IMG/VR virus record: IMGVR_UViG_3300020215_000003
DNA from: an uncultured virus (IMG/VR IMGVR_UViG_3300020215_000003)
Lineage: Duplodnaviria > Heunggongvirae > Uroviricota > Caudoviricetes
Strand: one strand, 5' to 3'
Length of the DNA stretch: 64,000 bases
Shown: piece by piece, positions 1-51,293 of the stretch
How positions within the stretch are numbered: position 1 is the stretch's first letter
Layout: every line of letters begins with the position of its first letter
The notes under the pieces: model-generated
Database searches by the model: none
Told to the model about the DNA's origin: nothing
What the model saw: only the letters and a program-made list of their open reading frames with translations
Made by a program: the position numbers and the translations under genes

Positions 1-259
1 CTTCCAGGGCTTGCTGGCGGGTCGTGTAGCGGCGCTGGTATTCGTCGTGCGGCCCGCCGAAGATCATCGTTTCGTACAAAAGCGGCGGGCCTTTGCCGTG
101 CTGGTGGTCGAGGCCGAGAAACACGGTGCTGACGCGCACCTCCCCAATCGTTTCTTGGGCAATGATCCTGTCTTGGCTGCTCTCGAACCACTTCGCCCAG
201 GTCATGAGGTCGGCGGGCTTGGGCACGCCAGCGGCGTCGAGGATGTACTTATCGCTCAT
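1..259 (-). CDS. Conserved phage hypothetical protein, runs off the window start
   Basis: Not in the ORF track. Manual translation from ATG 259 (GGAGG upstream) gives MSDKYILD...VSTVFLGLDH...PPLLYETMIFGG...YQRRY, a motif pattern common in phage proteins. Confidence 0.75.
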   Translation of the reverse strand, partial: MSDKYILDAAGVPKPADLMTWAKWFESSQDRIIAQETIGEVRVSTVFLGLDHQHGKGPPLLYETMIFGGPHDEYQRRYTTRQQALE

Positions 260-358
260 CGGGCCTCCAAAAATCCACCCCGCCCGGCCTCGGCTCCGCG
301 TGAGCGGGCGGCGGTGATGAGTCGCCGCAGAGGACACGGGCGGGGCAGAGGGAATGAC

Positions 359-814
359 TTACTCTTCGGCGAGGCCAAGCGCCTCTTTGGTCTCGTCGTT
401 GTCTGGATCGTTTATGTCGATGCCCTCGGCGTCGAGCTGCTCCATCACGTCAGCTTCGAGGGCGCAGTAGGCAAGACCAGACCAGTTGATAGCGCCGTCA
501 TTCGCAATGCCCTCTTTCCCGAATTGGTCTACGTAGGCATCTTGGTTCTCAGTGAAGAGGAGCGTTTTCTGCGCCTGCCAGGTGTAGATCACGCGCTCGT
601 TGCCGTCGATGGTCTCGTTGATGTGCTCGATGAGCCATTCGCGGAGCGGTTCGCCGGAGTTGCCGTCTTTGATTTGGTCGCGCAGCTCGTCCATGATGCT
701 ATGGGCGAGGCCGCGCACGTCGGCCCAATATTCGGCGCGGAGCACATGTTCCGCGTCCTTGACGATCTTCTCGGCCTCTTCGCGGGTCAGTTCGGAGAAA
801 GGCTTGGTCAACAT
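359..814 (-). CDS. Acidic early protein, candidate Ocr (T7 gp0.3)-like DNA mimic
   Basis: 151 aa with about 36 D/E versus about 13 K/R by hand count. LIEHINETIDGNERVIY resembles the Ocr segment LHDAIHMAADNAVPHYY. Strong RBS; early-operon position. Confidence 0.5.
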   Translation of the reverse strand: MLTKPFSELTREEAEKIVKDAEHVLRAEYWADVRGLAHSIMDELRDQIKDGNSGEPLREWLIEHINETIDGNERVIYTWQAQKTLLFTENQDAYVDQFGKEGIANDGAINWSGLAYCALEADVMEQLDAEGIDINDPDNDETKEALGLAEE

Positions 815-964
815 GGTTCATTCCCTCTTTTAGGAGTGCGGGGAGGTAATCAACCGCCCCAGTGCTCGCCTACGATGCCGGCGAGCGAAGGCAACACACA
901 AGAGTAGACGCGCCCACCGTGGGCACGTCAAGCGGTGCGGCTGTGCAGGTGCGCAGCCCATAGA

Positions 965-1248
965 TTTAGCGTGCCAGCTCAGCGTATGAGCGCCATCCGT
1001 CAACCGGCTCGCCTCGGAACCATCTCCCCTCTTTCTCCCAGAGGCGGGCATGGAACCCGGTTAGCTTCGCTGCCTCGGCCTCGCGCTTCGTGGCGAACGT
1101 GTCTAGCGTGCCGCCCCTGGACGATTTGAGCGCCCAGCGGCGGCCGTGCTTTTCGACGGTCCACGATGACGGCGGATCGGCGTCGTGTTCTTCTGGGGTA
1201 AGGTGCAGGGCCATTCGCGTTTCCTCCAAAGGGGTTTAGCGTGCCAGC
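965..1248. repeat. 14-bp direct repeat TTTAGCGTGCCAGC
   Basis: Exact copies at 965-978 and 1235-1248; each encodes the LAR-stop end of a gene. Confidence 0.85.
966..1214 (-). CDS. Hypothetical early protein
   Basis: ORF with GGAGGA upstream of ATG 1214 (MALHL...). Confidence 0.65.
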   Translation of the reverse strand: MALHLTPEEHDADPPSSWTVEKHGRRWALKSSRGGTLDTFATKREAEAAKLTGFHARLWEKEGRWFRGEPVDGWRSYAELAR

Positions 1249-1328
1249 GCTTCCGCAATGGCTAGTCCGCAGACAAGGGCGACCAGCGCCAGGGCGATAG
1301 CGCAGAGGCGGGGATAGTGGTTAGGCAT
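1236..1328 (-). CDS. 30-aa hydrophobic single-TM peptide
   Basis: Manual translation MPNHYPRLCAIALALVALVCGLAIAEALAR; fills the gap between neighbouring genes. Confidence 0.55.
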   Translation of the reverse strand: MPNHYPRLCAIALALVALVCGLAIAEALAR

Positions 1329-1331
1329 TGG

Positions 1332-1667
1332 CTAGGCTCCGGTGCCAGTGGCCTTTGCAATAGCCTTGCGCAGCACGTCTAAACGAAGCGTGGATACACG
1401 CCACGCCGCGCTTGCGCCAAGCTCCTCGAAAGCCTGCTTGCATGCCTCCAGCAAATCAGGCGCGGCCGCTATTAATCGTGCATCAGCCTCGGCAATGGCG
1501 TGGTCATTCGCTTCGCAGACCTCGGCTATCGTTTCTATGGCAACATCGACGCCCCGTTCCTCGGCGGCTTCCTTGCCAAGGTCCCGATTGATGCCGAACG
1601 CTCGCAAGCCGTTTAGCTTGTCGTCGGCGCTGTAGGTCCACGGTCCCGGTGTGTGTTTCGCTTGCAT
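1332..1667 (-). CDS. Phage hypothetical protein (HTPGPW...DARLIAAAPDLL family)
   Basis: Typical N- and C-terminal motifs; GGAGG RBS. Confidence 0.8.
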   Translation of the reverse strand: MQAKHTPGPWTYSADDKLNGLRAFGINRDLGKEAAEERGVDVAIETIAEVCEANDHAIAEADARLIAAAPDLLEACKQAFEELGASAAWRVSTLRLDVLRKAIAKATGTGA

Positions 1668-1751
1668 CGCTTATCCCTCCAGGGTTTGCCACCTGGCGCG
1701 CTCCGAAGTGAAGCGCGGCCCATTACGCGCCTTGCGGCGCGGGCTCTGAGT

Positions 1752-1979
1752 TTAGAACCTGGCGGCGCTCTTTTCCTTCGCCCATGTCAGCAGCGATTCC
1801 AGCTCTTTCAATACCTTGCGAGCGCCGATCGTCTGTTCATAGATGATCGGTGTATCTGGCTGGTCTAGTTCCCGGTCCATGTTCGCCACATGGCGGCGCA
1901 TGCGCGTGGTTTCTTCGGATAGTGCGTCGCGGATTGCGATAACCTCAGATTCGGTGAACGTCGCGGTAATGGTTCTCAT
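1752..1979 (-). CDS. Hypothetical early protein
   Basis: ORF preceded by GGAGGGAATGA. Confidence 0.65.
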   Translation of the reverse strand: MRTITATFTESEVIAIRDALSEETTRMRRHVANMDRELDQPDTPIIYEQTIGARKVLKELESLLTWAKEKSAARF

Positions 1980-2077
1980 TGTTCATTCCCTCCGAATATG
2001 GCCGGGTAATCAATCCGGCATACGGTTAAAGGCACTCACCATAGCGCCGGAGCATGCCGGCGCAGTAGTGAAAGCCC

Positions 2078-2602
2078 CTAAGCGGATTGCGCGTGGCGAG
2101 ACGTGCGGAAATGCTCGGGCGTGATTGTCGGCAGCGCGTCCCATGCCACTACGTCTTGTTCGATGCCGACCGCATAGGCGTCTATAGCGTTCGTCGTCAT
2201 GTCTCTGAGGAAGAACGCGATCGGATAGCCTGCGCCGTTCAGGACAACGCCGATAAACTCGAAACCGTAAAACTCCGCCTCCGCCTTGCCATGCTCTCCC
2301 TCAAACGTGACAGATGGATAGGCGCGGCTGATGCCGTGGCGCAGCGCAGCTCCTACCTTGATGGGGAGATGCGGTTCGCTTGGCGCGTGAAACATCCAGC
2401 CATTTGGCATGGTCTCTTTAGTCAGGACGAAAGAGAGGATGCGGAACCCGTTGGCGCGGGCACGCATCATGGCGACGTTGGATAGGTCGGAGCGGCGCTT
2501 TTGCTCGGCGCGGTTTGCCTTCTCCGCCTTGCGTAGCGCTTTCTTGGCGGCCTTTTCGGTCTCGCCCTCAAACCGGCCTAGCTCTGTCTCGATCGCAAAC
2601 AT
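2078..2602 (-). CDS. Hypothetical protein, first gene of the early operon
   Basis: ORF preceded by GAGGGAATGA; lies directly downstream of the promoter at 2667-2695. Confidence 0.7.
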   Translation of the reverse strand: MFAIETELGRFEGETEKAAKKALRKAEKANRAEQKRRSDLSNVAMMRARANGFRILSFVLTKETMPNGWMFHAPSEPHLPIKVGAALRHGISRAYPSVTFEGEHGKAEAEFYGFEFIGVVLNGAGYPIAFFLRDMTTNAIDAYAVGIEQDVVAWDALPTITPEHFRTSRHAQSA

Positions 2603-2666
2603 GGTCATTCCCTCTGTGCGGGACGAGTAATCAGCTCGTCCGCGGGTTGAATTGATCTACGCTCTA

Positions 2667-2695
2667 ACTATTACGTCGGCGAAAGAGATAGTCAA
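2667..2695 (-). promoter_or_regulatory. Sigma70-type promoter of the early operon
   Basis: TTGACT-17 nt-AATAGT on the minus strand. Confidence 0.6.
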
Positions 2696-2758
2696 GGGGG
2701 AGAGAAAGAAAAGACGTGAGACCGCAGAAAAGATTGATCTATTTCGCTGACGGGACAG

Positions 2759-2950
2759 TTAGTTTTGTGGGCGCGGTCTGCCGGGAGCCTGACGTTTGAA
2801 GCGCATCACGTCAGAACGGAGAAGGGCATAGGAGCGTTCGAGCTGCTTAGCGGGAAGGCGGCCAGCTCGAATGAATTGCCTGACGCGCGTAGGCGTGACA
2901 CCGATAATCCGGGCCGCCTCAGACACCGATAGGACATCATCAAGGGACAT
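2759..2950 (-). CDS. Excisionase/MerR-like helix-turn-helix protein (HTH_17 type)
   Basis: 63 aa, LSVSEAARIIGVTPTRVRQFIRAGRLPA...GRP; start re-assigned to ATG 2950. Confidence 0.85.
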   Translation of the reverse strand: MSLDDVLSVSEAARIIGVTPTRVRQFIRAGRLPAKQLERSYALLRSDVMRFKRQAPGRPRPQN

Positions 2951-2958
2951 CACGCAAG

Positions 2959-2987
2959 ATTCTATCGCCGACGAAAGAGAAAGCGAA
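2959..2987 (-). promoter_or_regulatory. Promoter for a near-leaderless HTH transcript
   Basis: TTCGCT-17 nt-TAGAAT ending 8 nt before the ATG; no SD sequence. Confidence 0.55.
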
Positions 2988-3149
2988 TGAAAATGAAAGA
3001 AGCATTTTCGCTGAGAGGGAACGGCAGCGACGCGCTGAACGGCGCCAGCACGCACACAAGACCGCAATAGCCGGCGCAACGGACGATGTAGCGCCGCTCT
3101 TTCCCGCCTCTTTACGCGCCGATTGCCCAGGCGATGCATAACAGAGGAG

Positions 3150-3249
3150 CCAGACACACCAGAGCAGATGGACCAGAGACACAAGAAGCGCCAGAGCCTA
3201 CCATCTGGCAGCTCTGGTAGCTCTGACAGGTCTGGTAGCTCTGGTAGGG
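3150..3249. repeat. CCAGA(G) copies followed by five degenerate 9-bp tandem units
   Basis: CCAGA at 3150, 3159, 3173, 3191, then CTGGCAGCT CTGGTAGCT CTGACAGGT CTGGTAGCT CTGGTAGGG at 3205-3249. Confidence 0.75.
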
Positions 3250-3631
3250 ACGAGCTCTTTCACCCATGCTTACCCGCTCTTTCGGCCATGCTTCAGACCA
3301 GAGGCGGAACAATGCCGAACCATAGCAGACACAAGGGCTTGCGGCCATTCGTCCCAGGCTATGCGTTAACCCTTCCGCTAACAGGACAAAGGCCCCCTCA
3401 GCCTGTCATTAGCATATGCTAGCTTCACATACCGCACGATACATGGCCACGCATAGCTAGTCGGGGTATATGCTTGCGTCATACTGGCCATGGGCTGTGC
3501 ATGGGCCAGAGACCCTACCCGGTTGGCCCCCAAACGTAGCCAGGACAGTAGTCATATGCCCCATCTGGAGTTTTTGACCCCCCTTTAGTTTTGGGGAGGC
3601 TCTAGGATCACGTCTGGCGCGTTTTGGTGGG

Positions 3632-4243
3632 TTAGGTGGCTTTGGAGTCGGGTTGAGGTGTTTGGAGCGGTTCTGGGGCATTCTGGGAGGAATCTGGACC
3701 TGTGTGGGTGTTCAGTACGTGGTGATCGACCGGCTCGAATCGCTTCCTGCCCATCTTGGCTGCCACTTGGTCGTAGCTGATCGGCCGGAATTCCCAGCAG
3801 TCCACGCCGACGTCGAAGGAGCGGCTGGTTTCGAGCTCGGGGAGGCTGCCGTGGCTGTGTCCGTGGAGGTGCCAGGAGCCGTGGTGCATGCAGTTCCAGG
3901 TACGGAAGGCGTAGTGGCAGAGGTAGATCTTCTGGTCACCAACCTTCAGGCCGAAGTAGTCCTTGATCCAGATCCAGCGGTCCAGTTTCTCCGCGACCCG
4001 CTCGTGGTTGCCGCGGATGAGGTAAATCTGCCCGTTGAGGCGTTCGGCGATCTTGCGGGCCTCCTCGACCGGACCCAGGGCGAAGTCGCCAAGGTGGTAT
4101 ACCCGGTCACCGGGACGGACACGCTCATTCCACCGCTCGATCATGAGATCGTTCATCTCGTCGAGCGAGGCGAACTGTTTGCGGAAGAGCAGGCAGTTCT
4201 TGTGGTTGAAGTGGGTGTCGGAAGTGAACCAGATGTCGTTCAT
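3632..4243 (-). CDS. Calcineurin-like metallophosphoesterase
   Basis: Motifs SDTHFNH, HLGDF, RGNHE, HGHSH and DVGVD. Confidence 0.92.
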   Translation of the reverse strand: MNDIWFTSDTHFNHKNCLLFRKQFASLDEMNDLMIERWNERVRPGDRVYHLGDFALGPVEEARKIAERLNGQIYLIRGNHERVAEKLDRWIWIKDYFGLKVGDQKIYLCHYAFRTWNCMHHGSWHLHGHSHGSLPELETSRSFDVGVDCWEFRPISYDQVAAKMGRKRFEPVDHHVLNTHTGPDSSQNAPEPLQTPQPDSKAT

Positions 4244-4497
4244 GGGCGTTTCGAGGCTTGCTTCCAGAAGGACTCAATGTCGGAGCGGAGGCGGTCAAAG
4301 GTGAGGTCGGTGTTGTCGCCCCAGTCGAGGTCGTATTTGGTCAGGGCTTTGATGTCCCCTGGTTGCAGGTAGAGCGCCCGCGCTTGCTTGCCTTCATCCC
4401 ATCTATCGTCGCGGTCCAGTTCCAGCGCTCCGAAGTGGCGTAAGTTGTAGCTGCGGTCGCCGATGCGCAGGATGCCGTCGTTGATTTCCCAGGTCAT
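4240..4497 (-). CDS. Hypothetical protein
   Basis: Start MTWEIND at 4497 with GAGG RBS; ATGA overlaps at both ends. Confidence 0.6.
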   Translation of the reverse strand: MTWEINDGILRIGDRSYNLRHFGALELDRDDRWDEGKQARALYLQPGDIKALTKYDLDWGDNTDLTFDRLRSDIESFWKQASKRP

Positions 4498-4691
4498 TTC
4501 GCCTCCTCGTGTTCCTTGGCCTCTTCCCATGTCGGTGTGGGGGCGATGGCTTCGCCGAATGTTTGGTTGATGTGGCGGCGCCGGGCCATTTCTTCCTCGT
4601 AGCACTCCCGGCAGAGGCGCAGGTGCATGGGGCCGATCGGAACCAGCTTCAGAGGACCAGGGGAGGAGCACCGCTTGCCGTCGCAGGTCAT
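4494..4691 (-). CDS. Hypothetical Cys-containing protein
   Basis: CxxxxC and CxxC motifs; coupled to the next gene. Confidence 0.6.
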   Translation of the reverse strand: MTCDGKRCSSPGPLKLVPIGPMHLRLCRECYEEEMARRRHINQTFGEAIAPTPTWEEAKEHEEAK

Positions 4692-4871
4692 TTCTCGGCT
4701 TCCTCGTTGGAGCGCGCCTCGTCCGCGGCAAGATCAATGGCCTGAGCAAGCACCTTGGCGGCTTGCCAGCTTTCTTATCTTGTGGCGGAGATGGGTCAGC
4801 CCCAGGAGCGTGATGGAAACCTCGTCGTACTCCAGGGACACGACCACATCTTCGGTCTCGACGTTGCCCAT
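4688..4871 (-). pseudogene. Small gene with an apparent frameshift near 4775
   Basis: MGNVETEDVV...HKIR continues in another frame as WQAAKVLAQAIDLAADEARSNEEAEK-stop, which overlaps the next ATG. Confidence 0.45.
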
Positions 4872-4883
4872 TGACGCAACTCC

Positions 4884-5177
4884 TTAGTAATACTCGCATT
4901 CCAGGCCGGTTGCTTGCTCAACGAGTGCGCGGATCTTGTGCAGGTCCTCTTTCGCCGGCGCGTGCTCGACGCTCTCGACCCACCGCGTCAGCCGGCCGAT
5001 CTTCGAGATGGTCTCGATCTTCTCCAGCACCGCGGCACCAACGAGGCGGTCGATGAACGCCACGATGGGATCGACGACCTGATCGGATGGGCCCATGCCT
5101 ACCACGATCCCGGCCGGCGTGTGCGTGTATTCGATGGGCAGAAGCCGTTTCAGTTCAGCGATTTGCGTGTCGGTCAT
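4884..5177 (-). CDS. Hypothetical protein
   Basis: ORF in operon context with an RBS. Confidence 0.6.
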   Translation of the reverse strand: MTDTQIAELKRLLPIEYTHTPAGIVVGMGPSDQVVDPIVAFIDRLVGAAVLEKIETISKIGRLTRWVESVEHAPAKEDLHKIRALVEQATGLECEYY

Positions 5178-5185
5178 CGTGGCCC

Positions 5186-5521
5186 TCAGTCATTGGCTTT
5201 GCGGGTGATTGGCTCGTCGGCCATCCGTGCCTCGGCCTTTTTCATGATCTCGGCCACCGCCGGCGCCTCATCGCCGAACATCTCAGTGAGAGCGTCGGTG
5301 TCCGAGCTGCGGATTTGGATCTGGTTGCCGCTGGCCTTGGGGACAAAAGGCTGTCCGTCCATCGCCATGGCGTCGCCCTGATAGCTTGGTTGGTACACGA
5401 CATTATTGTGACGGTCGCGTCCGACGCCGGCGTCGTCAAAGATCACAAGGCATGGCAGGCATACGCAGTTATCCGTGAGCCCCTTGCCGCAGATCGGGCA
5501 ATTGCGCTGACCACCGTCCAT
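5186..5521 (-). CDS. Hypothetical zinc-ribbon protein
   Basis: CPIC...CLPC; GAGGAG RBS. Confidence 0.65.
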   Translation of the reverse strand: MDGGQRNCPICGKGLTDNCVCLPCLVIFDDAGVGRDRHNNVVYQPSYQGDAMAMDGQPFVPKASGNQIQIRSSDTDALTEMFGDEAPAVAEIMKKAEARMADEPITRKAND

Positions 5522-5607
5522 AATCGAATCTCCTCAAATTAGCGTCACCTAACCTCTTGGCATGTGTCTTGCAAGTTGTTGTGCTACCATGCTTTTAGGA
5601 GGGTGCC

Positions 5608-5760
5608 GTGAACGACCTTGCGGTGATAAAGGCCCTGCTGAACCCCACTTTGCTCTCAAGCGAGGCAGTGCGGCGCTTGTCGATCAGGAAGCAGAAGTAC
5701 GTGCCCCTGCGTAAGAAGCTGCTCAAGGCCCCGCCTCCGGTGCAGGTGTCGCTGCGGTGA
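5608..5760 (+). CDS. 50-aa basic protein, opposite in direction to the surrounding operon
   Basis: TGcTACCAT extended -10 at 5582-5590, AGGAGG at 5597-5602, GTG at 5608; MNDLAVIKALLNPTLLSSEAVRRLSIRKQKYVPLRKKLLKAPPPVQVSLR. Confidence 0.55.
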   Translation: MNDLAVIKALLNPTLLSSEAVRRLSIRKQKYVPLRKKLLKAPPPVQVSLR

Positions 5761-5975
5761 CGGGGTTCATGATCTGGTCGTAGGCTTGGCTCACTGTTGC
5801 TTTGGAGCATTCGGGACAGATGTCAACATCAACGTCATTGACGCCTGTTTTGTGCGGCGTCACACTGACCCCGAACATCACACCAAGCCTCGCATCCGAC
5901 CACGCGCTCGGTGTATAGGCGGCAGCCATTCTCCGGCATTTCCTTGCCGCAGTAGTCGCAGAACTTCTTCAGCAT
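5723..5975 (-). pseudogene. Zinc-finger protein with an apparent frameshift near 5897
   Basis: MLKKFCDYCGKEM... and ...DICPECSK... are in different frames but together give the two CxxC pairs of one protein. Confidence 0.55.
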
Positions 5976-6170
5976 GAACTCTCCTTCGCCGGTTCGGCCA
6001 CTTCGGATCTCGTCGGGGATCGTGGCCATCAGCACCTCAAGCGAGGTTCTGATGCCGAGAAAGGCTTGGTGGACCTCGCCGTCGTACTCGATGTCGTCAT
6101 TGGTCAGAATGTCCTGCTGCACATGGTCGCGCAGCTTTTCGATGCCATTCTTCACGAATTGCAGCGTCAT
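5969..6170 (-). pseudogene. Hypothetical gene with an apparent frameshift near 6005
   Basis: Removing one base gives ...EVAEPAKESSC-stop overlapping the downstream ATG; as written it is fused to the next gene. Confidence 0.4.
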
Positions 6171-6183
6171 GCGATTCTCCGGG

Positions 6184-6549
6184 TTAGTAATCTCTCCGCA
6201 TGGACGAGGTGAAGGCGTCGGCCATCTTCTCGGCCATCTTGTCCACGGGCATGTTCAGGATGCGGTCGGCGGTCTCGCGGATCAGCGCGTTCAGCTTCTC
6301 CATGAACGACGCATCGCTTTTGACGTACTCTCTGACCAGTTCCCGGGCGACTTCCGTGGTCGCTCGGTCGAAGGCAATCTCCAACTCCGTCTTACCCATG
6401 CCGTACTCGCCGGTTTTCTTGTTCAAGAGGTTGCTGATGGCCGAGCGCAGAAGGTTCTCCCGCACCTCTGGGGTGAGCGTGCCCATGATCGCCTGGGCGG
6501 TCGCCTCACGCAGGGCCACGGGGTCGAGTTGAATGGTCAGTTGGCTCAT
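6184..6549 (-). CDS. Hypothetical helical protein
   Basis: ORF with GAGGAG RBS. Confidence 0.7.
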   Translation of the reverse strand: MSQLTIQLDPVALREATAQAIMGTLTPEVRENLLRSAISNLLNKKTGEYGMGKTELEIAFDRATTEVARELVREYVKSDASFMEKLNALIRETADRILNMPVDKMAEKMADAFTSSMRRDY

Positions 6550-6791
6550 GCGTTTCTCCTCGGGAACTGCTTTGCAATGGCCGGGTGCACATAGATCGAG
6601 TTTCCGACCAGGTACATGGCAGGTTTTGCGGGCCCGTCATGGCCGATGCCCAGTGCACGACACGCCCTCTCGTCCTTTGGCTCCCACTCGAAGAACCGAT
6701 GCTTCGGAAACACCCAGTCGCGCTGCACGCACAGGTCCGAGACGTAGACCGGCATGCCTTCCACCATTCTCAGGGCTTCCTGCGGAGTCAT
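6546..6791 (-). CDS. Hypothetical protein
   Basis: ATGA-coupled ORF. Confidence 0.6.
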   Translation of the reverse strand: MTPQEALRMVEGMPVYVSDLCVQRDWVFPKHRFFEWEPKDERACRALGIGHDGPAKPAMYLVGNSIYVHPAIAKQFPRRNA

Positions 6792-6825
6792 TGGGCTCGC
6801 CAGAGGTCACGTCCGATAACGGGGT

Positions 6826-7080
6826 TTATGTTCGGTTTTCCGGTTGAGGAGTCTGGGTAAGGATCGGCCGGGCCCGGATGCGCGTCACCACGTCCTCGAT
6901 CTCCTGCCACTTCGCGTCCCGGCCGTAGTTGAACTGCAGCTCCTTGCGGAGAAGCAGGATTATCTGCTCGCGTTCTTCCTCGACCGCGGAGCGAATGGCG
7001 TCGTCGAGATCGGCGCATACATACACCGGCACTATCACTTCGGTTGGCTGTTCGTTCTGCATCGGTGTCGGTGCCATCAC
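6826..7080 (-). CDS. Hypothetical protein
   Basis: Coupled ORF containing AVEEEREQII. Confidence 0.5.
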   Translation of the reverse strand: MMAPTPMQNEQPTEVIVPVYVCADLDDAIRSAVEEEREQIILLLRKELQFNYGRDAKWQEIEDVVTRIRARPILTQTPQPENRT

Positions 7081-7268
7081 TTGCCACTCACTCGGCCCAA
7101 TAGATCGTTCAGAAAAGCGTTCTGTTTCGCACTGTGTTCCTTGGCCACTTCGTAAGCCTGCCGGAGCGACGACTTGAAGCTGCGCACGGTAATCTTCATC
7201 ACCGTGTCGTCCAGCCGAAGGCCGGGGTTCTTCTCCACGAGCCGCTGCCAGTAGTCATCGAACGTCAT
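7077..7268 (-). CDS. Hypothetical protein
   Basis: Coupled ORF. Confidence 0.6.
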   Translation of the reverse strand: MTFDDYWQRLVEKNPGLRLDDTVMKITVRSFKSSLRQAYEVAKEHSAKQNAFLNDLLGRVSGK

Positions 7269-7539
7269 GGCGCATCCCTTCGAGTTCCTTCACCTTGGCT
7301 CTGAGCCTCTCGCACTCCGGGCAGGTCCGGTTCACCAGCGCGATCCCCCGGGCCACCTTCCCGCGGCGGACGATGTAGCCCTTCTTCTCCAGCGCGTTGA
7401 GGTGCCCAACAACGCCGTGCGGCGTGGTGATGCCGAAGCGTTCTCCGATCTCGCGGATGCACGGAGGGAAGCCATCGCGGTCGATGGCTTCTGCGATGAA
7501 GCTGAGGATCGCAGATTGGCGTTCGGTGAGCTGGTTCAC
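7255..7539 (-). CDS. LexA-type winged-helix DNA-binding protein without the peptidase domain
   Basis: LTERQ..IL.FI...GFPPCIREIG..FG.....V..HL.ALEKKGYI.R....RGI; ends in CPEC plus a short coiled coil. Confidence 0.9.
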   Translation of the reverse strand: MNQLTERQSAILSFIAEAIDRDGFPPCIREIGERFGITTPHGVVGHLNALEKKGYIVRRGKVARGIALVNRTCPECERLRAKVKELEGMRHDVR

Positions 7540-8453
7540 GACGCCTCCTTCAGGAGTTCCCTGAGACGCTCAGACTGAAGGCGCCGCCGCACGCTCCAGC
7601 CAGTCATCACGGACTGGACGACCCTGCGCCGGGCTTCTTGCTCACGCTGAACTTGCATGGCGCGAAGCATTCTCTTGGCGAGATACTGGCCAGTCTCCAT
7701 CTCCGGGAAAAAGAGCCTGGACAGCGCCACCATCGCCTTCTCTTCGAGCTGGCGCACGCGCTCGCGCGAGACCTTTAGCCGCCTGCCGATCTCCTCCAGG
7801 GTGTACTCAGGCCCTTCGAACCCGTTGCGAAGCCGAAGGATCAGTTGATCCCGCTCGCGCAGCTTTCGAAGGTTGGCATTGAGCGCGTCGATCTCGTCGC
7901 GTTCGAACGACGGCCGCTGCGCAGGCGGTGCTGCGAGGAAGTCTCGCACCGTTTTGGCCCTCTGTTGCCTTCCAGACATTGGCAATTCTTTGTCGATGCT
8001 CTTCACTCGCAGCGCCGACTTTGCCCTTCGAACCGCCTCGTCCCAAGCTGCGTCTGCGGAGTCGCTCATCGCGGCTGGACGGACGTTCGAAGGCAGATGA
8101 ATCAGGCCGGAGTTGCGGTTCACCGCATGCTGGACGTAGCGATAAACGCTGGTGTAGGCGTAGGTGACGAACTTCACGCCGAAGCTCGGATCGAACAGCC
8201 GAATCGCGTGCAAAAAGCCGATAATGCCTTCCTGAAACAGATCGCACTCATCGCCGTAGCGCCACATCACGCGCTTCATCTTCCTGGTGATGTGCCGGAT
8301 CATCGGCAGGTACGACAGCACGAGCCGATCGCGTTCCGTTTGGGTCATGTCTGGCGTGGGGGACAGCCCGCGCGGTAGAGGGTTCTCTTTGCAGGTCCAG
8401 GTACAGAAGGGCCGCGGCAGATCGTGCATCTTGCCGCAGTACGTGCAGATCAT
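7536..8453 (-). CDS. Sigma70-family RNA polymerase sigma factor
   Basis: Region 2 DLFQEGIIGFLHAIRLFDPSFGVKFVTYA and region 4 YTLEEIGRRLKVSRERVRQLEEKAM; start re-assigned to ATG 8453. Confidence 0.93.
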   Translation of the reverse strand: MICTYCGKMHDLPRPFCTWTCKENPLPRGLSPTPDMTQTERDRLVLSYLPMIRHITRKMKRVMWRYGDECDLFQEGIIGFLHAIRLFDPSFGVKFVTYAYTSVYRYVQHAVNRNSGLIHLPSNVRPAAMSDSADAAWDEAVRRAKSALRVKSIDKELPMSGRQQRAKTVRDFLAAPPAQRPSFERDEIDALNANLRKLRERDQLILRLRNGFEGPEYTLEEIGRRLKVSRERVRQLEEKAMVALSRLFFPEMETGQYLAKRMLRAMQVQREQEARRRVVQSVMTGWSVRRRLQSERLRELLKEAS

Positions 8454-8511
8454 GTCGGCCTCGCCTCCCAGGAAGAGTGGGTTTGGAGACGAGAAGTTCG
8501 GAGTTGCTGCT

Positions 8512-8802
8512 TTAGCGAGCGCTGCTGACGACAAATATGCCCATGAAGATGGCGATGGTCGCAATCGCCCATCCGATGCGAGCGCCTTCGCTGTCCCCGC
8601 CAGCTAGACTTGAGCTTCCCATTGCGCCGATCGCGCCGAGAAAGAAGAAGCACACGCCGGCACCGATGAGAGTCGCAATCGAAAAGCCGGTGCGAGCGGT
8701 CGCAGCAGTGACGAACGCCGCGAACACGGACGCAACGATGATGACAGGGATGAGAAGCTCGTCCCGCTTGGGAGGCGGAGGCGGGCCAGGTGATGAAGAC
8801 AT
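8512..8802 (-). CDS. Small membrane protein with about three TM segments
   Basis: Three hydrophobic stretches after a proline-rich N-terminus. Confidence 0.65.
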   Translation of the reverse strand: MSSSPGPPPPPKRDELLIPVIIVASVFAAFVTAATARTGFSIATLIGAGVCFFFLGAIGAMGSSSLAGGDSEGARIGWAIATIAIFMGIFVVSSAR

Positions 8803-8807
8803 GGCAA

Positions 8808-9017
8808 TCAGGCTGATTTGCGGCGCTTGCCGGGCTTCGGTCCGGGCACCCCGCGCGGCACCCAGCCCAATTCCGGCTTGTCAAAGTGCTCGGCCACCGC
8901 CTGCACAACGACGTCAATGAGACCAATCCCGCGCTCCTGCGCCTCGGCGAGGATCAGATCGTACAGCTCGTCGCCGACCTTGACGCTGATGTAGTTTGGT
9001 GTCGCATTCTTTCGCAT
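8808..9017 (-). CDS. Ribbon-helix-helix-like DNA-binding protein, candidate repressor
   Basis: YISVKVGDELYDLILAEAQERGIGLIDVVVQAV pattern with a basic tail; first gene after the leftward TATAAT. Confidence 0.6.
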   Translation of the reverse strand: MRKNATPNYISVKVGDELYDLILAEAQERGIGLIDVVVQAVAEHFDKPELGWVPRGVPGPKPGKRRKSA

Positions 9018-9045
9018 CGTGACTTCCACTTTTTTCTTCTCCGCA

Positions 9046-9130
9046 ATTATAGTGGCAATCGGCGATTGGGAAACAAATCGCAAGAAAAATTATTTTCTCA
9101 ATTGACGAATAGCAGGAGCGTCGTTAAACT
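9046..9130. promoter_or_regulatory. Divergent promoter pair with palindromic operator candidates
   Basis: Minus strand TATAAT at 9046-9051. Plus strand TTGACG (9102-9107)-17 nt-TAAACT (9125-9130). Palindromes CAATCG-G-CGATTG at 9056-9068 and AGAAAA-ATTA-TTTTCT at 9083-9098. Confidence 0.75.
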
Positions 9131-9136
9131 CACCTC

Positions 9137-9533
9137 AGTTCACGCTCGCTGCCACCGAGCAAAACAGACCCAGGAGCGCGGGCGCGCGTCTTACGGCGAG
9201 CGTGAACTACTCAGTCTGAGAGCCGCCCCGCTCTTGGTTTTCGGGTCAACCCCATGCGTCTCTGCCCACGAGCATCTGGTACTCCAGCGGGATCTGGCGT
9301 CTCCGGGTCTCGTGGGCTTCATTCGCTCTTTGTTCCGGGGCGGGGCCGTTCGGGTGAACAGTGCCCGCTCCGCTTGATTCAAAAGAACCTCCACATCGAG
9401 AGGCGGCCAGAAGCTCGCAAGAATTTCCAGCCCGCCTGTGCCGCGCTCCCCGGAAGGCAGGAAAAACCAGAGAACCTGGGTTGGGTATCCGAAGGTCATA
9501 AAAGCCTTGAAAGCGTGGACAGGTTCTCCGGTT
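9137..9533 (+). ncRNA. Putative structured non-coding RNA of about 400 nt
   Basis: Begins at the expected transcription start. Stems 9137-9149/9196-9208 (13 bp), 9264-9272/9309-9317, 9333-9340/9448-9455 and 9470-9478/9520-9528. No credible ORF. Confidence 0.6.
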
Positions 9534-9535
9534 AT

Positions 9536-10492
9536 TTACCGGCGTCGGCCGCTGGTGATGGCTGCGGCTATCGGGGTGAGGTGGTCGGCCTGCTGACGCT
9601 GCCAGGCGTCGTAGTGCTTCTGGACGGTTCTCGGGCTATTGCCAAGGACATCCGCCACGTCGTCATTCGTGAAGCCCAGTTTGCGTCCGCGGCAGGCAAA
9701 AGAAGTGCGGGTGCAGTAGGCCGAGACGTTCCTTGGGACTCCCACTTTGTCGGCCAGCTTGCGGAACATATCCGCGAAGATCTGGCAGGTGTACGGCTTA
9801 CCCCTTCCGTTGACGAAGATGTGCTTCTGCCCGGGAAGTCGGATCCGGTAGAGCAAGCGCACCAGCTTCGCCGCTACGGGTTCAAGGGGGATCACTCGTG
9901 TCTTTCCGGTCTTGGTTCTCTCAGGGGGGAGGATGACCCTCTCCAGACCTGGGGTCCAGTCCACGTCGGTGAACAGGGCCTCACGCATCTCGCAGGTTCT
10001 CGATCCGGTGCGCCAGAGGAAGAACAAGGCCGCGCGGAAGCGGTAGCGGCTCTTTGGGTGGAAATGACCCCTGCGCGACTCCCGGATCACCCCCAGGAAC
10101 TCGTCTTTGAACAACGGCCGGCGCACGGGTTTGCTGGGGATCAGGTCAGACGGGCGGCGCAAGCGCGGCAAGCGGAGCTTGGGCCATTGCCTGTCTGCCC
10201 AACGGAAGCAGGCCACGACAGCGCCTGCGGCATCTTCGATGGTGTAGCCCGATTTCCATTCGGGGTGGTCGATGAGCCATCGGCAGATGTGGTTGTCGGT
10301 CATGTCCTCGGCGTGTTCATCGCCGAAGTGATCCACGAACGACGTACAGCGACGGTGGTAGCGGTCGTAGACCTTGGCGTTCTTGATCTTGCCGGTGCGC
10401 AGGCGATAGCGCCGGTCATTCAAGAACGCATCGACGACGGCGCGTACGGTAAGCGTGCCGTTAGTGGCAGCGACGGATGTGCAAGTGGCCAA
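9536..10492 (-). CDS. Tyrosine recombinase/integrase, compact form of about 318 aa
   Basis: RTGSR..E, TKTG, AYCTR (HxxR position), LGN and KHY. Probable TTG start at 10492 with AAAGGGA 8 nt upstream; the track ORF extends to 10771. Confidence 0.9.
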   Translation of the reverse strand: MATCTSVAATNGTLTVRAVVDAFLNDRRYRLRTGKIKNAKVYDRYHRRCTSFVDHFGDEHAEDMTDNHICRWLIDHPEWKSGYTIEDAAGAVVACFRWADRQWPKLRLPRLRRPSDLIPSKPVRRPLFKDEFLGVIRESRRGHFHPKSRYRFRAALFFLWRTGSRTCEMREALFTDVDWTPGLERVILPPERTKTGKTRVIPLEPVAAKLVRLLYRIRLPGQKHIFVNGRGKPYTCQIFADMFRKLADKVGVPRNVSAYCTRTSFACRGRKLGFTNDDVADVLGNSPRTVQKHYDAWQRQQADHLTPIAAAITSGRRR

Positions 10493-10496
10493 GGCG

Positions 10497-10660
10497 GGCG
10501 TCCCTTTACCACTGAGAAGGCAGGACGCCTTACCCGTTGCCCCATTGCGCTCGCGCAGGGGGCAACGGATATTCTTCCGTCCCTTTTGCAGAAGGCAAAG
10601 TGGACGGACGTTCCTTCGACCGGGGAGCGCACGATAAGCGCGCACTGGATGCGGCCCCGG
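10497..10660. other. Four consecutive hairpins upstream of the recombinase core
   Basis: Stems 10497-10503/10523-10529, 10534-10543/10559-10568, 10576-10582/10602-10608 and 10620-10625/10655-10660. Confidence 0.6.
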
Positions 10661-10845
10661 TTCGTTTCCTCCCCCTGCTGGACCCGTCTTGGGTTTGCAG
10701 CGTGCCTTGGGAGAGAGCGTCCAACGCGCGAGTTTAGCCTTCGCGATGGTTTCTGGAAGGTGATTGTTCACGAAATCGAAAGGCTAGCAAACGCTAGTTG
10801 AGGCCATAGCGGAGCGGATTTTCAGACACACAGGACAGGTGGGGA

Positions 10846-11118
10846 ATGGAAGAGATCCAAGTCCGAACCTGCGTTCGCTGCCGCAAGCGCCACAAGACGC
10901 GCTCTGGCCGTGGGCTGTGCCGTGGGTGCTGGAACGATCCGAGCGTGCGGAGGCTGTTCCCTCCGGTGGCGACCTTCGGTGGCGATGAGGCTGGCGACAT
11001 CGGACACAAGGTTCTGCGCGAGATGCGTGCTGACTGCGACCACGAGGACACCGAACGCATCGACCCCCTGTCCGTTGGGTGCAAGGACTGCGGGGTGGTG
11101 CTGACGAGGGAGGAGTGA
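10846..11118 (+). CDS. Zinc-finger hypothetical protein
   Basis: CVRC...GRGLCRGC and CKDC. Confidence 0.65.
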   Translation: MEEIQVRTCVRCRKRHKTRSGRGLCRGCWNDPSVRRLFPPVATFGGDEAGDIGHKVLREMRADCDHEDTERIDPLSVGCKDCGVVLTREE

Positions 11119-11121
11119 CAA

Positions 11122-11478
11122 ATGGTGAAGAAGGCCAAGGGTTTGTTTGACCTCAAGAAGCTTACGGCAGCTCCGTGGGGTTGCATTCAGGCTTGCGTTA
11201 CGGCAGACAAATCACCTCGCCTGATGATAGGGCGCGGTGACAGCGACGCAACCAAAGAAGTGACGATCAGCGACATCAGGTTCATCATTCACGCCCGAGT
11301 GGCCTTCGAGATCCAAATGAAGAGAAAGTGGACCGCCTCTCGGGATTTCGATGGATGGTGCGTGATTGATGACGCCTGCATGATCGTGACCACGGCCGAA
11401 TGCCCGACGTTTTACCCGGACCCGATCTCAGCACTGATCGCTGCGGAAGAGTGGCAATCGGCCAAGGAATCGAAGTGA
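11122..11478 (+). CDS. Hypothetical protein, paralog 1 of a three-member family
   Basis: Shares DLxKLTxAPW, FIxxARxAF and DPxxALxxAxxW with 23997 and 58439; GGAGGAG RBS. Confidence 0.75.
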   Translation: MVKKAKGLFDLKKLTAAPWGCIQACVTADKSPRLMIGRGDSDATKEVTISDIRFIIHARVAFEIQMKRKWTASRDFDGWCVIDDACMIVTTAECPTFYPDPISALIAAEEWQSAKESK

Positions 11479-11651
11479 CCAACCCCTTCACTGACACCGA
11501 CGACCCCTGCCCCTGCGTCCTGGACCTGGGCGAGCCCGACCCCGAGTGCCCGTACTGCGAGGACGGGGAGCTGACGCGGGAAGGGGCTATTCAACTGGCC
11601 TACGAACGGGCGGTTGCTGACGCGGACCACCTGGCGCTGATGCTCGAATGA
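11475..11651 (+). CDS. Small Cys-rich acidic protein
   Basis: GTGA-coupled; CPC...CPYC. Confidence 0.55.
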   Translation: MTNPFTDTDDPCPCVLDLGEPDPECPYCEDGELTREGAIQLAYERAVADADHLALMLE

Positions 11652-51068: not shown

Positions 51069-51240
51069 GCCTGCCCGCCCCGTGATGGTCATCGAGGACT
51101 TTCCGGGGCTACTCACCAACGCGGATCCGGTTGATTACCCGCCTGGAGGCGCGGAGGAGCAGGTTAACGCCTGCTCTCACCGCGTTGGTGAGCTGGTGGT
51201 CCGTAGGGGCCTTGCCGAGGTTACGTTTGAGGGGAACTAG
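51061..51240 (+). CDS. 59-aa protein resembling the N-terminus of tail nozzle/stabilization proteins
   Basis: GAGGAG RBS; IEDFPGL.TNADP...PPG.A..Q.N......GEL..RRG. Confidence 0.6.
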   Translation: MAEPARPVMVIEDFPGLLTNADPVDYPPGGAEEQVNACSHRVGELVVRRGLAEVTFEGN

Positions 51241-51293
51241 ACCACCTGCGCAAAATGCGCAGGTGGTCTATCAATGTTTTCTGGGGTTTTCTG

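Follow-up and report, generated by a model that had tools for sequence, protein, structure and literature searches.

In phage lambda, a hairpin that follows the integrase gene terminates int transcripts and controls the stability of int mRNA from its 3′ side (sib/tI). A tRNA gene downstream of int is a classic landmark of the phage attachment site (attP), and phages integrate into tRNA, tmRNA and 4.5S RNA genes. IS110 elements carry their RNA in the upstream non-coding end of the element, and integron attC sites and the attP(+) of CTX phage are recombined as folded single-stranded DNA. Simple tyrosine recombinases with a core-binding (CB) and a catalytic (CAT) domain also mobilise phages: one article counts 27 such phages against 410 with an arm-binding domain, Brujita Int being the studied example (PMC8138268). 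One published phage has its attP inside ffs, the gene for 4.5S RNA, at a distance of 74 nt from the int terminus (PMC12540744).

The locus described here belongs to a tailed dsDNA phage of about 67 kb from a soil metagenome and was analysed within a stretch of 64,000 nt (64 kb) of its DNA, referred to below as the window. A preliminary description of this DNA had set a compact tyrosine recombinase beside a promoter-driven, structured RNA of about 400 nt, and had raised the idea that this RNA could be a cofactor or guide of the enzyme. In our preferred reading, which we hold with about as much belief as doubt, positions 9018–9535 instead form an ordinary flank on the 3′ side of an arm-less integrase gene in a temperate phage, with a terminator, back-to-back promoters and a probable attP, and contain no dedicated RNA partner.

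The recombinase and its family

Genes judged real in positions 1–10492 all point leftward and those from 10846 on nearly all point rightward, so that the left arm of this tailed temperate phage opens with int. The gene content includes terminase, head and tail genes, Sak4 and an HTH_17 Xis-like ORF. Three of the loci collected (L001, L019 and L024) are the same virus as the window, and the nearest virus record (G001) stops at about window position 6605, without the int locus. In sequencing run X2, unitigs break at 9133–9162 and at 11537–11566, with a depth of 39.4 between the breaks and 42.8–42.9 outside them, a pattern that suggests to us a bubble produced by a minor variant allele rather than an att junction; a variant allele of about 92% identity is seen in runs X1 and X3. 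Run X3 has almost no cover over 9113–9510 at a depth of 2–4, which we do not count as a finding.

The integrase gene occupies 9536..10492 on the minus strand and encodes 318 aa with a core-binding and a catalytic domain only. Its TTG start at 10492 agrees with an independent 318-aa gene call (P0001) and with the N-termini of homologs. The protein matches PF00589 (E 3.8e-12; 46.8 bits against a cut-off of 27.1) and the phrog_1 integrase family (E 2.2e-25); the search for other domains gave a sub-threshold HTH_23 and neither of the IS110-type domains PF01548 and PF02371. The AF2 model (pLDDT 94.1) places helices at residues 16–102 and the catalytic domain at 129–314. An arm-binding domain is absent, the model having 15 residues before the first CB helix, and profile alignments start at query residues 25–30, corresponding to residue 81 of full-length lambda Int or residue 13 of its 75–356 construct (XerD, 8–279). 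The best structural matches from Foldseek were XerH, XerA, lambda Int 75–356, Tn1549 Int 82–397, Cre and Brujita Int, the first five with a probability of 1.00. As modelled, Int is a canonical two-domain tyrosine recombinase, with a DNA-recombinase fold and no extra domain.

The catalytic residues R165, R262 and Y294 (Arg-I, Arg-II and the Tyr nucleophile) are invariant in the homolog alignment A1, and are kept in 153, 154 and 147 of 155 family members, respectively. Profile alignment to solved recombinases pairs Y259 and N285 with the His residues of HxxR and LGH/W. Tyr at the first of these positions is the family rule (137/155, with His in 3), while Asn at the second is rare (8/155, against 118 with His, 15 with Gln and 6 with Trp). 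The small size from a TTG start, the missing arm-binding domain and the Tyr and Asn at the HxxR and LGH positions, all proposed in the preliminary description, are thus borne out by the gene call and homolog N-termini, by the alignment together with the fold model, and by the alignment to solved enzymes.

Enzymes that have Tyr where HxxR has His make up a family of 447 clusters at E ≤ 1e-30. Close homologs of the phage recombinase (P0002, P0003 and P0004) share 62, 53 and 49% identity with it, and the DNA encoding them was found neither in viral contigs nor among 11 metagenome loci. No tblastn match to the family appeared at E ≤ 1e-8 in 50,697 GenBank phage records; a threshold of 1e-2 brought up merely partial matches of 25–28% there, and a plasmid search gave two weak matches. 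An integrase pattern search over one genome for each of 185,579 species returned three pattern matches, none of them a relative, and in the phylum of a MAG titled Planctomycetaceae (G004) 2 of 401 genomes had distant family matches only (E ~1e-39). A degenerate pattern picked out 13 stretches on viral contigs, two of which are family members, namely the window's own virus (L024) and L025. At locus L010, three tandem genes match the family profile (E 8e-112, 4e-83 and 1e-97) and all carry the Y-x-x-R-H motif, so that the wider family includes trio-type elements.

Promoter-like sites and hairpins in the 3′ flank

The non-coding gap 3′ of int (9018–9535, about 450 nt) holds three separate hairpins in otherwise unstructured sequence. 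It is bounded by a small leftward gene (8808..9017, minus strand, ATG at 9017, GC3 0.79) that has weak family matches only, and whose 69-aa product we read as ribbon-helix-helix-like by sequence pattern alone, with the support of no tool. This gene opens the next leftward block, which encodes a membrane protein, a sigma-70 factor and a LexA-DBD protein, the neighbours' domains being Sigma70_r2/r4 and LexA_DNA_bind. A 102-aa ORF that spans the gap (9191..9499, minus strand) was rejected as a gene: its GC1/2/3 values are 0.56/0.59/0.67, real genes having a GC3 of about 0.79, it has no Pfam or PHROG match, and a homolog search of 5.8 billion clusters returned only the ORF itself. The earlier view that the gap contains no credible ORF stands.

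The sole AT-rich stretch of the locus (9040–9135, GC 0.41) carries one promoter-like site per strand. On the minus strand, a perfect TATAAT (9046..9051), one of two copies in 64 kb on both strands together, precedes the ATG of the next leftward gene by 29 nt and has no good −35; it may drive the leftward operon with its small DNA-binding protein, sigma factor and LexA-DBD protein. On the plus strand, a sigma-70-like TTGACG-17-TAAACT (9102..9130) has 9 of 12 consensus matches and points toward the 3′ end of int. This site is where it had been described and is the only one of its kind in 8500–11200 (shuffles, mean 0.4), but it is not exceptional, since 12 sites with 9/12 matches, and none better, occur on both strands of the 64 kb.

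The first hairpin, HP1 (9137..9208), has perfect 13-bp arms (9137–9149 / 9196–9208) around a 46-nt spacer, and begins, as first noticed, where transcription from the plus-strand promoter-like site would be expected to start (+1). It is among the four perfect inverted repeats of at least 11 bp (loop up to 80) in 64 kb, folds with a z of −3.08 on the plus and −2.64 on the minus strand, and has no U tail on either. The second, HP2 (9264..9317, plus strand), consists of a 9-bp perfect outer stem, a partly paired internal region, a 4-bp inner stem and a 6-nt loop. The plus-strand fold (−32.1 kcal/mol, z −4.28) is stabler than that of the minus strand (−26.1 kcal/mol, z −3.07), and the 12 nt that follow HP2, with six T on the plus and one on the minus strand, narrowly miss the rule for a terminator.

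The third hairpin, HP3 (9462..9536, minus strand), stands directly after the int stop codon and combines a 14-bp outer stem with a small inner hairpin. It folds better on the minus strand (z −5.44) than on the plus strand (z −3.98), and a single G·U pair of its outer stem on the minus strand becomes an A·C mismatch on the plus strand. The minus strand continues from it with U5 and the plus strand with UUAUUUAC, the 12-nt tails containing six and four T, respectively. All three terminator-like sites flagged in the gap are on the minus strand; one falls within HP3 (9479..9467), and a small terminator-like hairpin is predicted at 9404..9387. Read from the int stop codon, the 14-bp stem followed by U5 has the form of an intrinsic (Rho-independent) terminator. 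HP3 is probably the int terminator, perhaps a bidirectional one that may also stop a convergent plus-strand transcript.

Whereas HP1 to HP3 reach z values of −3 to −5 on both strands, which favours the reading of the gap as an ordinary integrase flank, the spacers 9209–9263 and 9318–9461 fold no better than shuffles (z 0 to −0.8; −0.02 on the plus and −0.8 on the minus strand for the longer). The whole stretch scores z −2.0 (plus) and −2.29 (minus), standing at merely the 12th and 7th percentile, respectively, of 319 sliding 400-nt windows of the same phage, and its global minimum free energy fold does not retain the 13-bp stem of HP1. These values contradict the single structured RNA of about 400 nt put forward in the preliminary description. 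Nor do G-U pairs favour the plus strand, as had been argued there, given the minus-strand G·U of HP3. The structure is local and not strand-specific, and the strand preference is mixed. Neither GGAGCGCGGG nor the 13-mer arm nor GCCCACGAG is enriched in the window; matches with at most two mismatches to the 9-nt repeat unit of 3204–3248, which agrees with the HP2 loop in 7 of its 9 nt, occur at background (166 vs 147 ± 11).

Part of this evidence suits a plus-strand sRNA gene, which we consider possible though doubtful and which would accord with the antisense regulator or the unrelated phage ncRNA given as alternatives in the preliminary description. Its transcript would start at about 9137, carry HP1 as a protective 5′ stem-loop, end at HP2 (about 190 nt) or HP3 (about 400 nt) and regulate phage genes. 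In its long form it would be an antisense RNA against the 3′ UTR and terminator of int, possibly leading to decay, and in its short form it could act in trans; in either form the RNA would be independent of recombination chemistry. The 9/12 promoter with its optimal 17-bp spacer in the only AT-rich stretch, the perfect stem at the expected +1, the lack of an ORF in the gap, the 6 kcal/mol by which HP2 is stabler on the strand that alone has a U-rich tail, and the UUAUUUAC behind HP3 all agree with such a gene. However, promoter matches of equal quality recur through the 64 kb, the HP2 tail stays just below the terminator rule, HP3 prefers the minus strand, no Rfam family is found, nothing similar lies beside any relative compared (≤38% identity), and a search for RNA sequencing runs containing the locus gave none. 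If the gap is an ordinary integrase flank, the same promoter, should it fire, would yield a short RNA convergent with int, with its end at HP2 or HP3 and a cis effect on int expression.

HP2 and HP3 are also the two domains that had been drawn as stem, two-sided internal loop and stem. Both hairpins exist and both left loops contain GGTA, but the supposed internal loop of HP2 is largely paired on the plus strand. Such loops would be central to an RNA cofactor or guide, a reading to which we give very little credence, in which a plus-strand RNA binds Int and its internal loops provide site choice or architecture, replacing the arm-binding domain much as an IS110 bridge RNA would. A non-coding, hairpin-rich stretch is indeed physically linked to an arm-less recombinase, and in run X2 the gap from 9163 on shares a unitig bubble with int (9163–11536), which would fit gap and int travelling together as a module, provided that the bubble represents a variant allele. 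Yet the four loop strands match 8800–11000 by complementarity over 6–7 nt at most, at or below the level of shuffled loops (donor side only), and the proposed RNA lies downstream of the gene and converges on it. The enzyme itself has the predicted canonical fold of a DNA-binding tyrosine recombinase with no added domain, and arm-less phage integrases work without RNA, as Brujita Int does (PMC8138268).

The 54-nt succession of stem, unpaired centre and stem in HP2, with a stability that differs between strands, further raises the prospect of a folded ssDNA substrate, in which one strand of HP1, HP2 or HP3 would mimic a core site and be recombined as single-stranded DNA. We judge this highly improbable. 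The element is a tailed dsDNA phage of about 67 kb with terminase, head and tail genes, and the recombinase matches no integron-integrase model: the IntI-specific TIGR02249 and NF011946 are absent from the five NCBIfam matches of P0001 and occur, weakly, in the distant P0005 only. Nor do the hairpin arms fit the attC R-box consensus, as compared by eye.

Flanks of relatives and candidate attachment sites

Flanks were compared in 10 relatives with at least 600 nt downstream of the recombinase gene and 23–38% identity to the phage recombinase. Four of the 10 have a tRNA gene on the strand of int, 99–416 nt after its stop, namely tRNA-Val(GAC) in L006, L007 and L025 and tRNA-His in L002. Since the record that contains L002 is a virus with direct terminal repeats, the tRNA there is phage-borne; L025 and L007 share just the tRNA and 127 nt of int. 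Because relatives carry a tRNA at the same place after int, attP of the present phage probably lies in the gap, where HP2 is the best candidate; its DNA forms an imperfect dyad around a 6-bp centre and is thus a candidate recombinase core site.

Several points count against the gap as an ordinary integrase flank with attP inside it. The tRNA argument rests on relatives of 23–38% identity, this phage's own gap contains neither a tRNA nor a tRNA fragment, and the relatives' tRNAs do not match it, the longest shared runs being 8–11 nt. Upstream of the int start, two strong hairpins stand side by side (10531–10571 and 10576–10608, both strands, z −5 to −6) and are at least equal as core-site candidates; the window 10201–10600 is the second most stable of the 319 400-nt windows on the plus strand, and 10576–10608 forms a 13-bp imperfect dyad around about 7 bp, which makes it an alternative candidate core site. 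The proposed attP has no known attB. A few tens of bp should suffice for an arm-less integrase, so that an attP does not explain 450 nt, and the plus-strand signals look coherent with a transcription unit (17-bp spacing, stem at +1, HP2 and HP3 tails).

With few candidates per genome scored, 9084–10900 had no match at E ≤ 1e-4 in 401 genomes from the phylum of a MAG titled Acidobacteriaceae (G008), and 9084–9540, searched on the same terms in five further genomes at E ≤ 0.1, had one chance-level match of 22 nt (E 0.04). No junction contigs for att appeared in four runs. As a separate route to the host, the phage's DUF5131 protein was tried and set aside as uninformative, its 545 relatives (37–54% identity) being spread over many phyla.

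These searches bear on the reading in which the phage integrates at a host non-coding RNA gene and carries a copy or fragment of that gene in the gap, so that promoter, structure and terminator would belong to it. The whole tRNA genes that relatives carry at the same place and the published ffs precedent (PMC12540744) speak for this reading. It is nonetheless improbable, as no Rfam family is found in the gap even at E up to 10, the gap holds no tRNA, and the genomes searched gave nothing beyond the chance-level match.

The Infernal check that had been suggested against Rfam gave no support for a known RNA. With Rfam 15, no match reached the gathering score in 64 kb, and at E up to 10 the six matches within 8900–10900 (E 4.7–9.1) belong to eukaryotic families; two overlap 9010–9140 and none falls in 9141–9535. 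Sequence similarity to the gap was absent from 13 relative loci (≤38% identity; best E 1.2), long-spaced inverted repeats comparable to those of the gap were absent from the 10 downstream flanks (≤38% identity), and a covariance model of 9137–9340 run against 18 sources (relatives ≤38% identity) found only itself, the next match having an E of 1.6. Together with chance-level loop complementarity, the lack of a consistent strand signal and the canonical fold, these results leave the RNA cofactor or guide of the preliminary description unsupported. That a plus-strand RNA from about 9137 is the dedicated partner of the arm-less lineage with Tyr for His, in the architectural or site-selecting role that falls to arm-binding domains and accessory proteins in other phage integrases, would in our estimation be a great surprise, and the locus is not strong enough as a lead to outrank ordinary integrase flanks.

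Comparison with described recombination systems

Bridge (seek) RNAs of IS110/IS1111 elements offer a likeness in the non-coding stretch that adjoins the recombinase and in the two-sided loops that can be drawn in it (PMC11208158; bioRxiv 10.64898/2026.10.21.760802). The enzymes differ, with DEDD/RuvC-like and Tnp domains (PF01548 and PF02371) there and PF00589 here; the position and orientation of the RNA are opposite, and complementarity between loops and DNA is here not above chance. A limited literature search brought up no report of a tyrosine recombinase with an RNA partner, though one may still be in print, and in the 2026 preprint on prokaryotic non-coding space (bioRxiv 10.64898/2026.10.21.760802) the words 'integrase' and 'tyrosine' have no occurrences. 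Were such a partner nevertheless real, it would give the first RNA-assisted tyrosine recombinase and extend RNA-programmed recombination beyond IS110.

Integron IntI with attC and XerCD with CTX phage are likewise tyrosine recombinases, acting on hairpin-shaped sites with unpaired centres, but P0001 matches no IntI-specific model, and the present element is a dsDNA tailed phage without a cassette array. RIT-type (recombinase-in-trio) simple recombinases (PMC3414803 and PMC8138268) have a candidate counterpart in the L010 trio of the wider family, whereas the phage gene stands alone and its product shares 28–32% identity with those of the L010 genes. Simple integrases of the Brujita type (the IntBrujita subgroup) are also phage-borne CB and CAT proteins without an arm-binding domain, and such enzymes integrate phages (PMC8138268). 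Beyond the superfamily no sequence relationship to them was detected, Brujita Int (5vfz) ranking 39th by fold and being absent from the sequence matches. The Brujita group comes from mycobacteriophages and the present phage from a soil metagenome, and the family described here carries Tyr for the HxxR His.

If the reading of the gap as an ordinary flank is right, the locus enlarges by one the small set of arm-less (simple) tyrosine integrases known from phages, and draws attention to a large uncultured family in which Tyr replaces the HxxR His. As tools for genome engineering, compact integrases that use short sites hold practical interest.

The int-attP-sib/tI region of lambda compares as follows. 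Lambda Int has an arm-binding domain and acts on an attP of about 240 bp with arm sites, unlike the arm-less enzyme and the candidate attP found here, and the present locus has in addition a convergent promoter-like site. A transcript from that site may act on int in a manner like sib/tI retroregulation and would have no part in the chemistry of recombination. In both phages, int is followed by a few hundred non-coding bases with a long hairpin and, in lambda certainly and here probably, the attachment site.

Gene layout and coding content of the gap

The contig derives from a tailed, temperate-looking phage of soil metagenomes (~61% G+C), in which all genes judged real in 1-10492 point leftward and nearly all from 10846 on point rightward. 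The right arm carries genes for a Sak4-like ATPase, a DUF5131 protein, endonuclease VII, and the large subunit of the terminase, together with those for the head and tail. The left arm contains, in order, the tyrosine recombinase gene int (9536..10492, minus strand), the gap directly 3′ of it (9018-9535), a 69-aa gene, a small membrane-like ORF, a sigma-70 factor (Sigma70_r2/r4), and a 94-aa protein with a LexA DNA-binding domain; the nearest virus record, G001, ends at position ~6605. Within 7255-8564, the phage-encoded sigma-70-type factor is 342 aa long with a Cys-rich N-terminus, and its gene is overlapped by 4 nt by that of the 94-aa protein, which has only the LexA DNA-binding domain, without a protease domain. 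Also in the left arm, 6.5 kb from int, lies a gene-poor kilobase of lower G+C (2609-3631) with a small ORF (2759-3184, minus strand) that carries an excisionase-type domain, HTH_17, in its C-terminal portion (E 1.9e-9), five tandem 9-nt units (3204-3248), two 18-nt repeats (3254-3293), and promoter-like sites at 2667-2695 (minus) and 2880-2908 (plus). This region could be an origin with iterons or a Xis/regulatory region.

No gene was found in the gap, in agreement with the preliminary description, which saw no credible ORF there. A 102-aa minus-strand ORF was rejected as a gene: its codon bias is weak, it matches no family, and its sole homolog is itself. The Rfam comparison suggested earlier returned no family at gathering score in the whole 64-kb window and, at E ≤ 10 in 8900-10900, only six chance-level matches, none within 9141-9535 and two overlapping the AT-rich left end of the gap (9010-9140).

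Two back-to-back promoter-like sites occupy an AT-rich zone at 9040-9135 (G+C 0.41). The plus-strand promoter proposed earlier, TTGACG-17-TAAACT, is present with 9/12 matches, but it is plausible rather than compelling, since 12 sites in the window score 9/12 and none scores better. On the minus strand, a perfect TATAAT (9051..9046), one of only two in 64 kb, lies 29 nt upstream of the ATG of the next gene, without a good -35 element. On either side of the promoter zone, a 12-nt sequence at 9170-9181, within the HP1 loop (see below), is the exact reverse complement of 8928-8939 inside the next gene (17 nt at 88%; 12 nt reached in 2 of 200 shuffles), a pair that could be a paired operator or chance.

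Hairpins and putative transcription signals downstream of int

As anatomy, the earlier observation is largely right; as a single structured RNA of ~400 nt (9137-9533), it is wrong. Three hairpins are found in the gap. HP1 (9137-9208) has the perfect 13-bp arms described previously, around a 46-nt spacer (z -3.1 on the plus strand, -2.6 on the minus strand). HP2 (9264-9317) combines a perfect 9-bp outer stem with inner pairs (z -4.3 and -3.1), and HP3 (9462-9536) a 14-bp outer stem with a small inner hairpin (z -4.0 and -5.4). Inverted repeats in the gap exceed chance, since only four perfect ones of at least 11 bp with loops of up to 80 nt occur in 64 kb, HP1 among them, and 12-mers with at most one mismatch pair up eight times in the gap vs. 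0.33 in 30 shuffles. The spacers between the hairpins are unstructured (z between -0.02 and -0.8), the whole stretch has z = -2.0 and -2.3 vs. shuffles and ranks at the 12th (plus) and 7th (minus) percentile among 319 sliding 400-nt windows of the same phage, and the global MFE fold loses the 13-bp stem of HP1. The other three perfect inverted repeats of the window, at 51112-51192, 51238-51270, and 31150-31210, are 13-15 bp long; that at 51238-51270, upstream of a gene with a weak major-tail-protein match, is predicted to be a strong terminator because it comes after a stop codon and before a T-rich run.

A terminator is expected to have a T-rich tail after its stem on the strand concerned. 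In the 12 nt after the stem, HP1 has 3 T on the plus strand and 4 on the minus strand, HP2 has 6 and 1, and HP3 has 4 and 6. On the minus strand HP3 adjoins the int stop codon and leads into U5, the signature of an int terminator. Its outer stem has its single wobble pair on the minus strand, an A·C mismatch on the plus strand, so the earlier argument from G-U pairs leaves the strand undecided; the three terminator-like sites found by scan in the gap are all on the minus strand. HP2, however, is clearly better on the plus strand (-32.1 vs. -26.1 kcal/mol), with a U-rich tail there only; after HP3 the plus strand reads UUAUUUAC, and HP1 starts at the expected +1 of the plus-strand promoter-like site. 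A coherent plus-strand unit is therefore possible, and a short convergent sRNA that runs ~190 nt to HP2 or ~400 nt to HP3 is a live, though tentative, alternative. The most likely reading, held with moderate confidence, is that the gap is an ordinary integrase 3′ flank, which would combine the int terminator, back-to-back promoters, a probable attP, and palindromes acting in cis.

Probable attachment site, proposed guide RNA, and population variation

A tRNA gene adjoining int is a classic mark of attP in tRNA-targeting integrases. Four of ten related recombinase loci (L006, L007, L025, and L002) have a complete tRNA gene, its 5′ end facing int, a short distance beyond int on the same strand: tRNA-Val(GAC) in L006 (1331-1404) and L007 (5958-6031), both ~165 nt after the stop, and in L025 (2050-2123, 416 nt), and tRNA-His in L002 (4993-5066, 99 nt). 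The int genes of L006 and L007 are ~72% identical, and their tRNA plus 60 nt upstream is near-identical, while L025 and L007 have only the tRNA and 127 nt of int in common. The L002 tRNA belongs to the phage genome, as its virus record has direct terminal repeats. By position, the attachment site of the family probably sits in the stretch that follows int. In this phage the gap contains neither a tRNA nor a tRNA fragment, and the phage's integration target would therefore be of another kind. There are two alternative candidate core sites: the HP2 dyad (9264-9317), whose arms, read from the sequence, match at 7/11 inner positions around a 6-bp centre, and a hairpin upstream of int (10576-10608) with a 13-bp arm pair matching at 11/13 around ~7 bp.

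The latter, a loxP-like dyad, is the second hairpin of a very stable adjacent pair (10531-10608; z between -5 and -6 for either strand) that lies 40-115 nt ahead of the int start. Among the 319 sliding 400-nt windows, 10201-10600 has the second most stable plus-strand fold. A U-rich run follows each of the two hairpins on that strand, so they could stop transcription antisense through int before it reaches the rightward early genes.

That the RNA might serve the recombinase as cofactor or guide, as the preliminary description ventured, has the adjacency of the gap to int in its favour and nothing further. The two-sided internal loops drawn at 9264-9317 and 9470-9528 lie in hairpins that do exist, but most of the HP2 "loop" is base-paired in the plus strand, and no match of the four loop strands to the surrounding 2.2 kb exceeds 6-7 nt, a length that shuffled loops reach as well. 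A recognisable RNA would be expected beside the homologs P0002-P0004 (49-62% identity); the flank tests covered relatives only 23-38% identical, and in these the gap had no sequence similarity to 13 related loci (best E 1.2) and comparable long-spaced repeats were found in 0/10 relatives whose downstream sequence extends for 600 nt or more, a few of which have one ordinary short-loop hairpin downstream of int. A covariance model of 9137-9340 found only itself in 18 sources, the next best match being the reverse strand of HP2 (E 1.6). Apart from the DNA-recombinase fold, the protein contains no domain, and literature searches gave, among the matches listed, RNA-guided recombination for IS110-type enzymes only. 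We regard a cofactor or guide as very improbable.

The assembly graph of one metagenome run containing the phage (X2) is interrupted at 9133-9162 and 11537-11566, and the depth is 39.4 between these breaks vs. 42.8-42.9 outside. We interpret the pattern as a bubble caused by a minor variant that diverges across 9163-11536; this span, which takes in most of the gap, int with its upstream hairpins, and two small genes, suggests a variant of the entire int module. A 194-nt contig from another run (X1) is 92% identical to 9613-9806 of int, and 12 of the 14 listed differences fall at third codon positions (frame from coordinates), indicating that int is under purifying selection.

A simple recombinase from an uncultured family

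The int reading frame is open from 10771, and its start is placed at TTG 10492 because an independent gene call (P0001) and every homolog's N-terminus agree on it, as does codon-position G+C (GC3 0.58 upstream of 10492 vs. 0.79), which bears out the compact 318-aa protein proposed earlier. P0001 matches PF00589 (tyrosine recombinase; 46.8 bits vs. a cut-off of 27.1) and phrog_1, and a six-homolog profile aligns to XerA, XerD, Tn1549 Int, and lambda Int. The absence of an arm-binding domain was also confirmed, as the alignment enters full-length lambda Int only at residue 81. Modelled with AlphaFold2 from 60 family members (pLDDT 94.1), the protein is predicted to consist of a helical core-binding domain (16-102) and a catalytic domain (129-314), without additions; the structures that best match the model are XerH, XerA, lambda Int 75-356, Tn1549 Int 82-397, IntI4, Cre, and Brujita Int. 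In profile alignments with solved enzymes, Tyr259 and Asn285 align with the His of HxxR and of LGH, respectively, as first noticed.

A word-indexed search with P0001 gave only six relatives, while an exhaustive profile search gave 61,975 proteins at E ≤ 0.001, 6,747 at 1e-10, and 447 clusters at 1e-30. In an alignment of 155 members (the best 150 sequences plus P0002-P0006), Arg-I is present in 153, Arg-II in 154, and the Tyr nucleophile in 147; the first His position is Tyr in 137 and His in 3, and the second is His in 118, Gln in 15, Asn in 8, and Trp in 6. These counts make Tyr-for-His a hallmark of the family and Asn a feature peculiar to the small clade of the query. No member was found at E ≤ 1e-8 in 50,697 GenBank phage records, phages and plasmids yield only distant matches, and a scan for the family motif, covering 185,579 species by one genome each, gave three pattern matches and no relatives. 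Distant members also occur as tandem or fused long ORFs of 518 and 710 aa (L004, 3649-7251).

The family to which the recombinase belongs is sizeable, uncultured, and distinguished by Tyr at the HxxR His position. At locus L010 (311-3768), three tandem, slightly overlapping recombinase genes, all distant members with Y-x-x-R-H, resemble recombinase-in-trio elements and link the wider family to them, as those elements are described in PMC3414803 and PMC8138268. The recombinase itself is a further member of an already known class, the simple phage integrases. According to PMC8138268, simple recombinases with only core-binding and catalytic domains are a minority in phages (27 phages vs. 410 with an arm-binding domain), and Brujita Int is their studied example.
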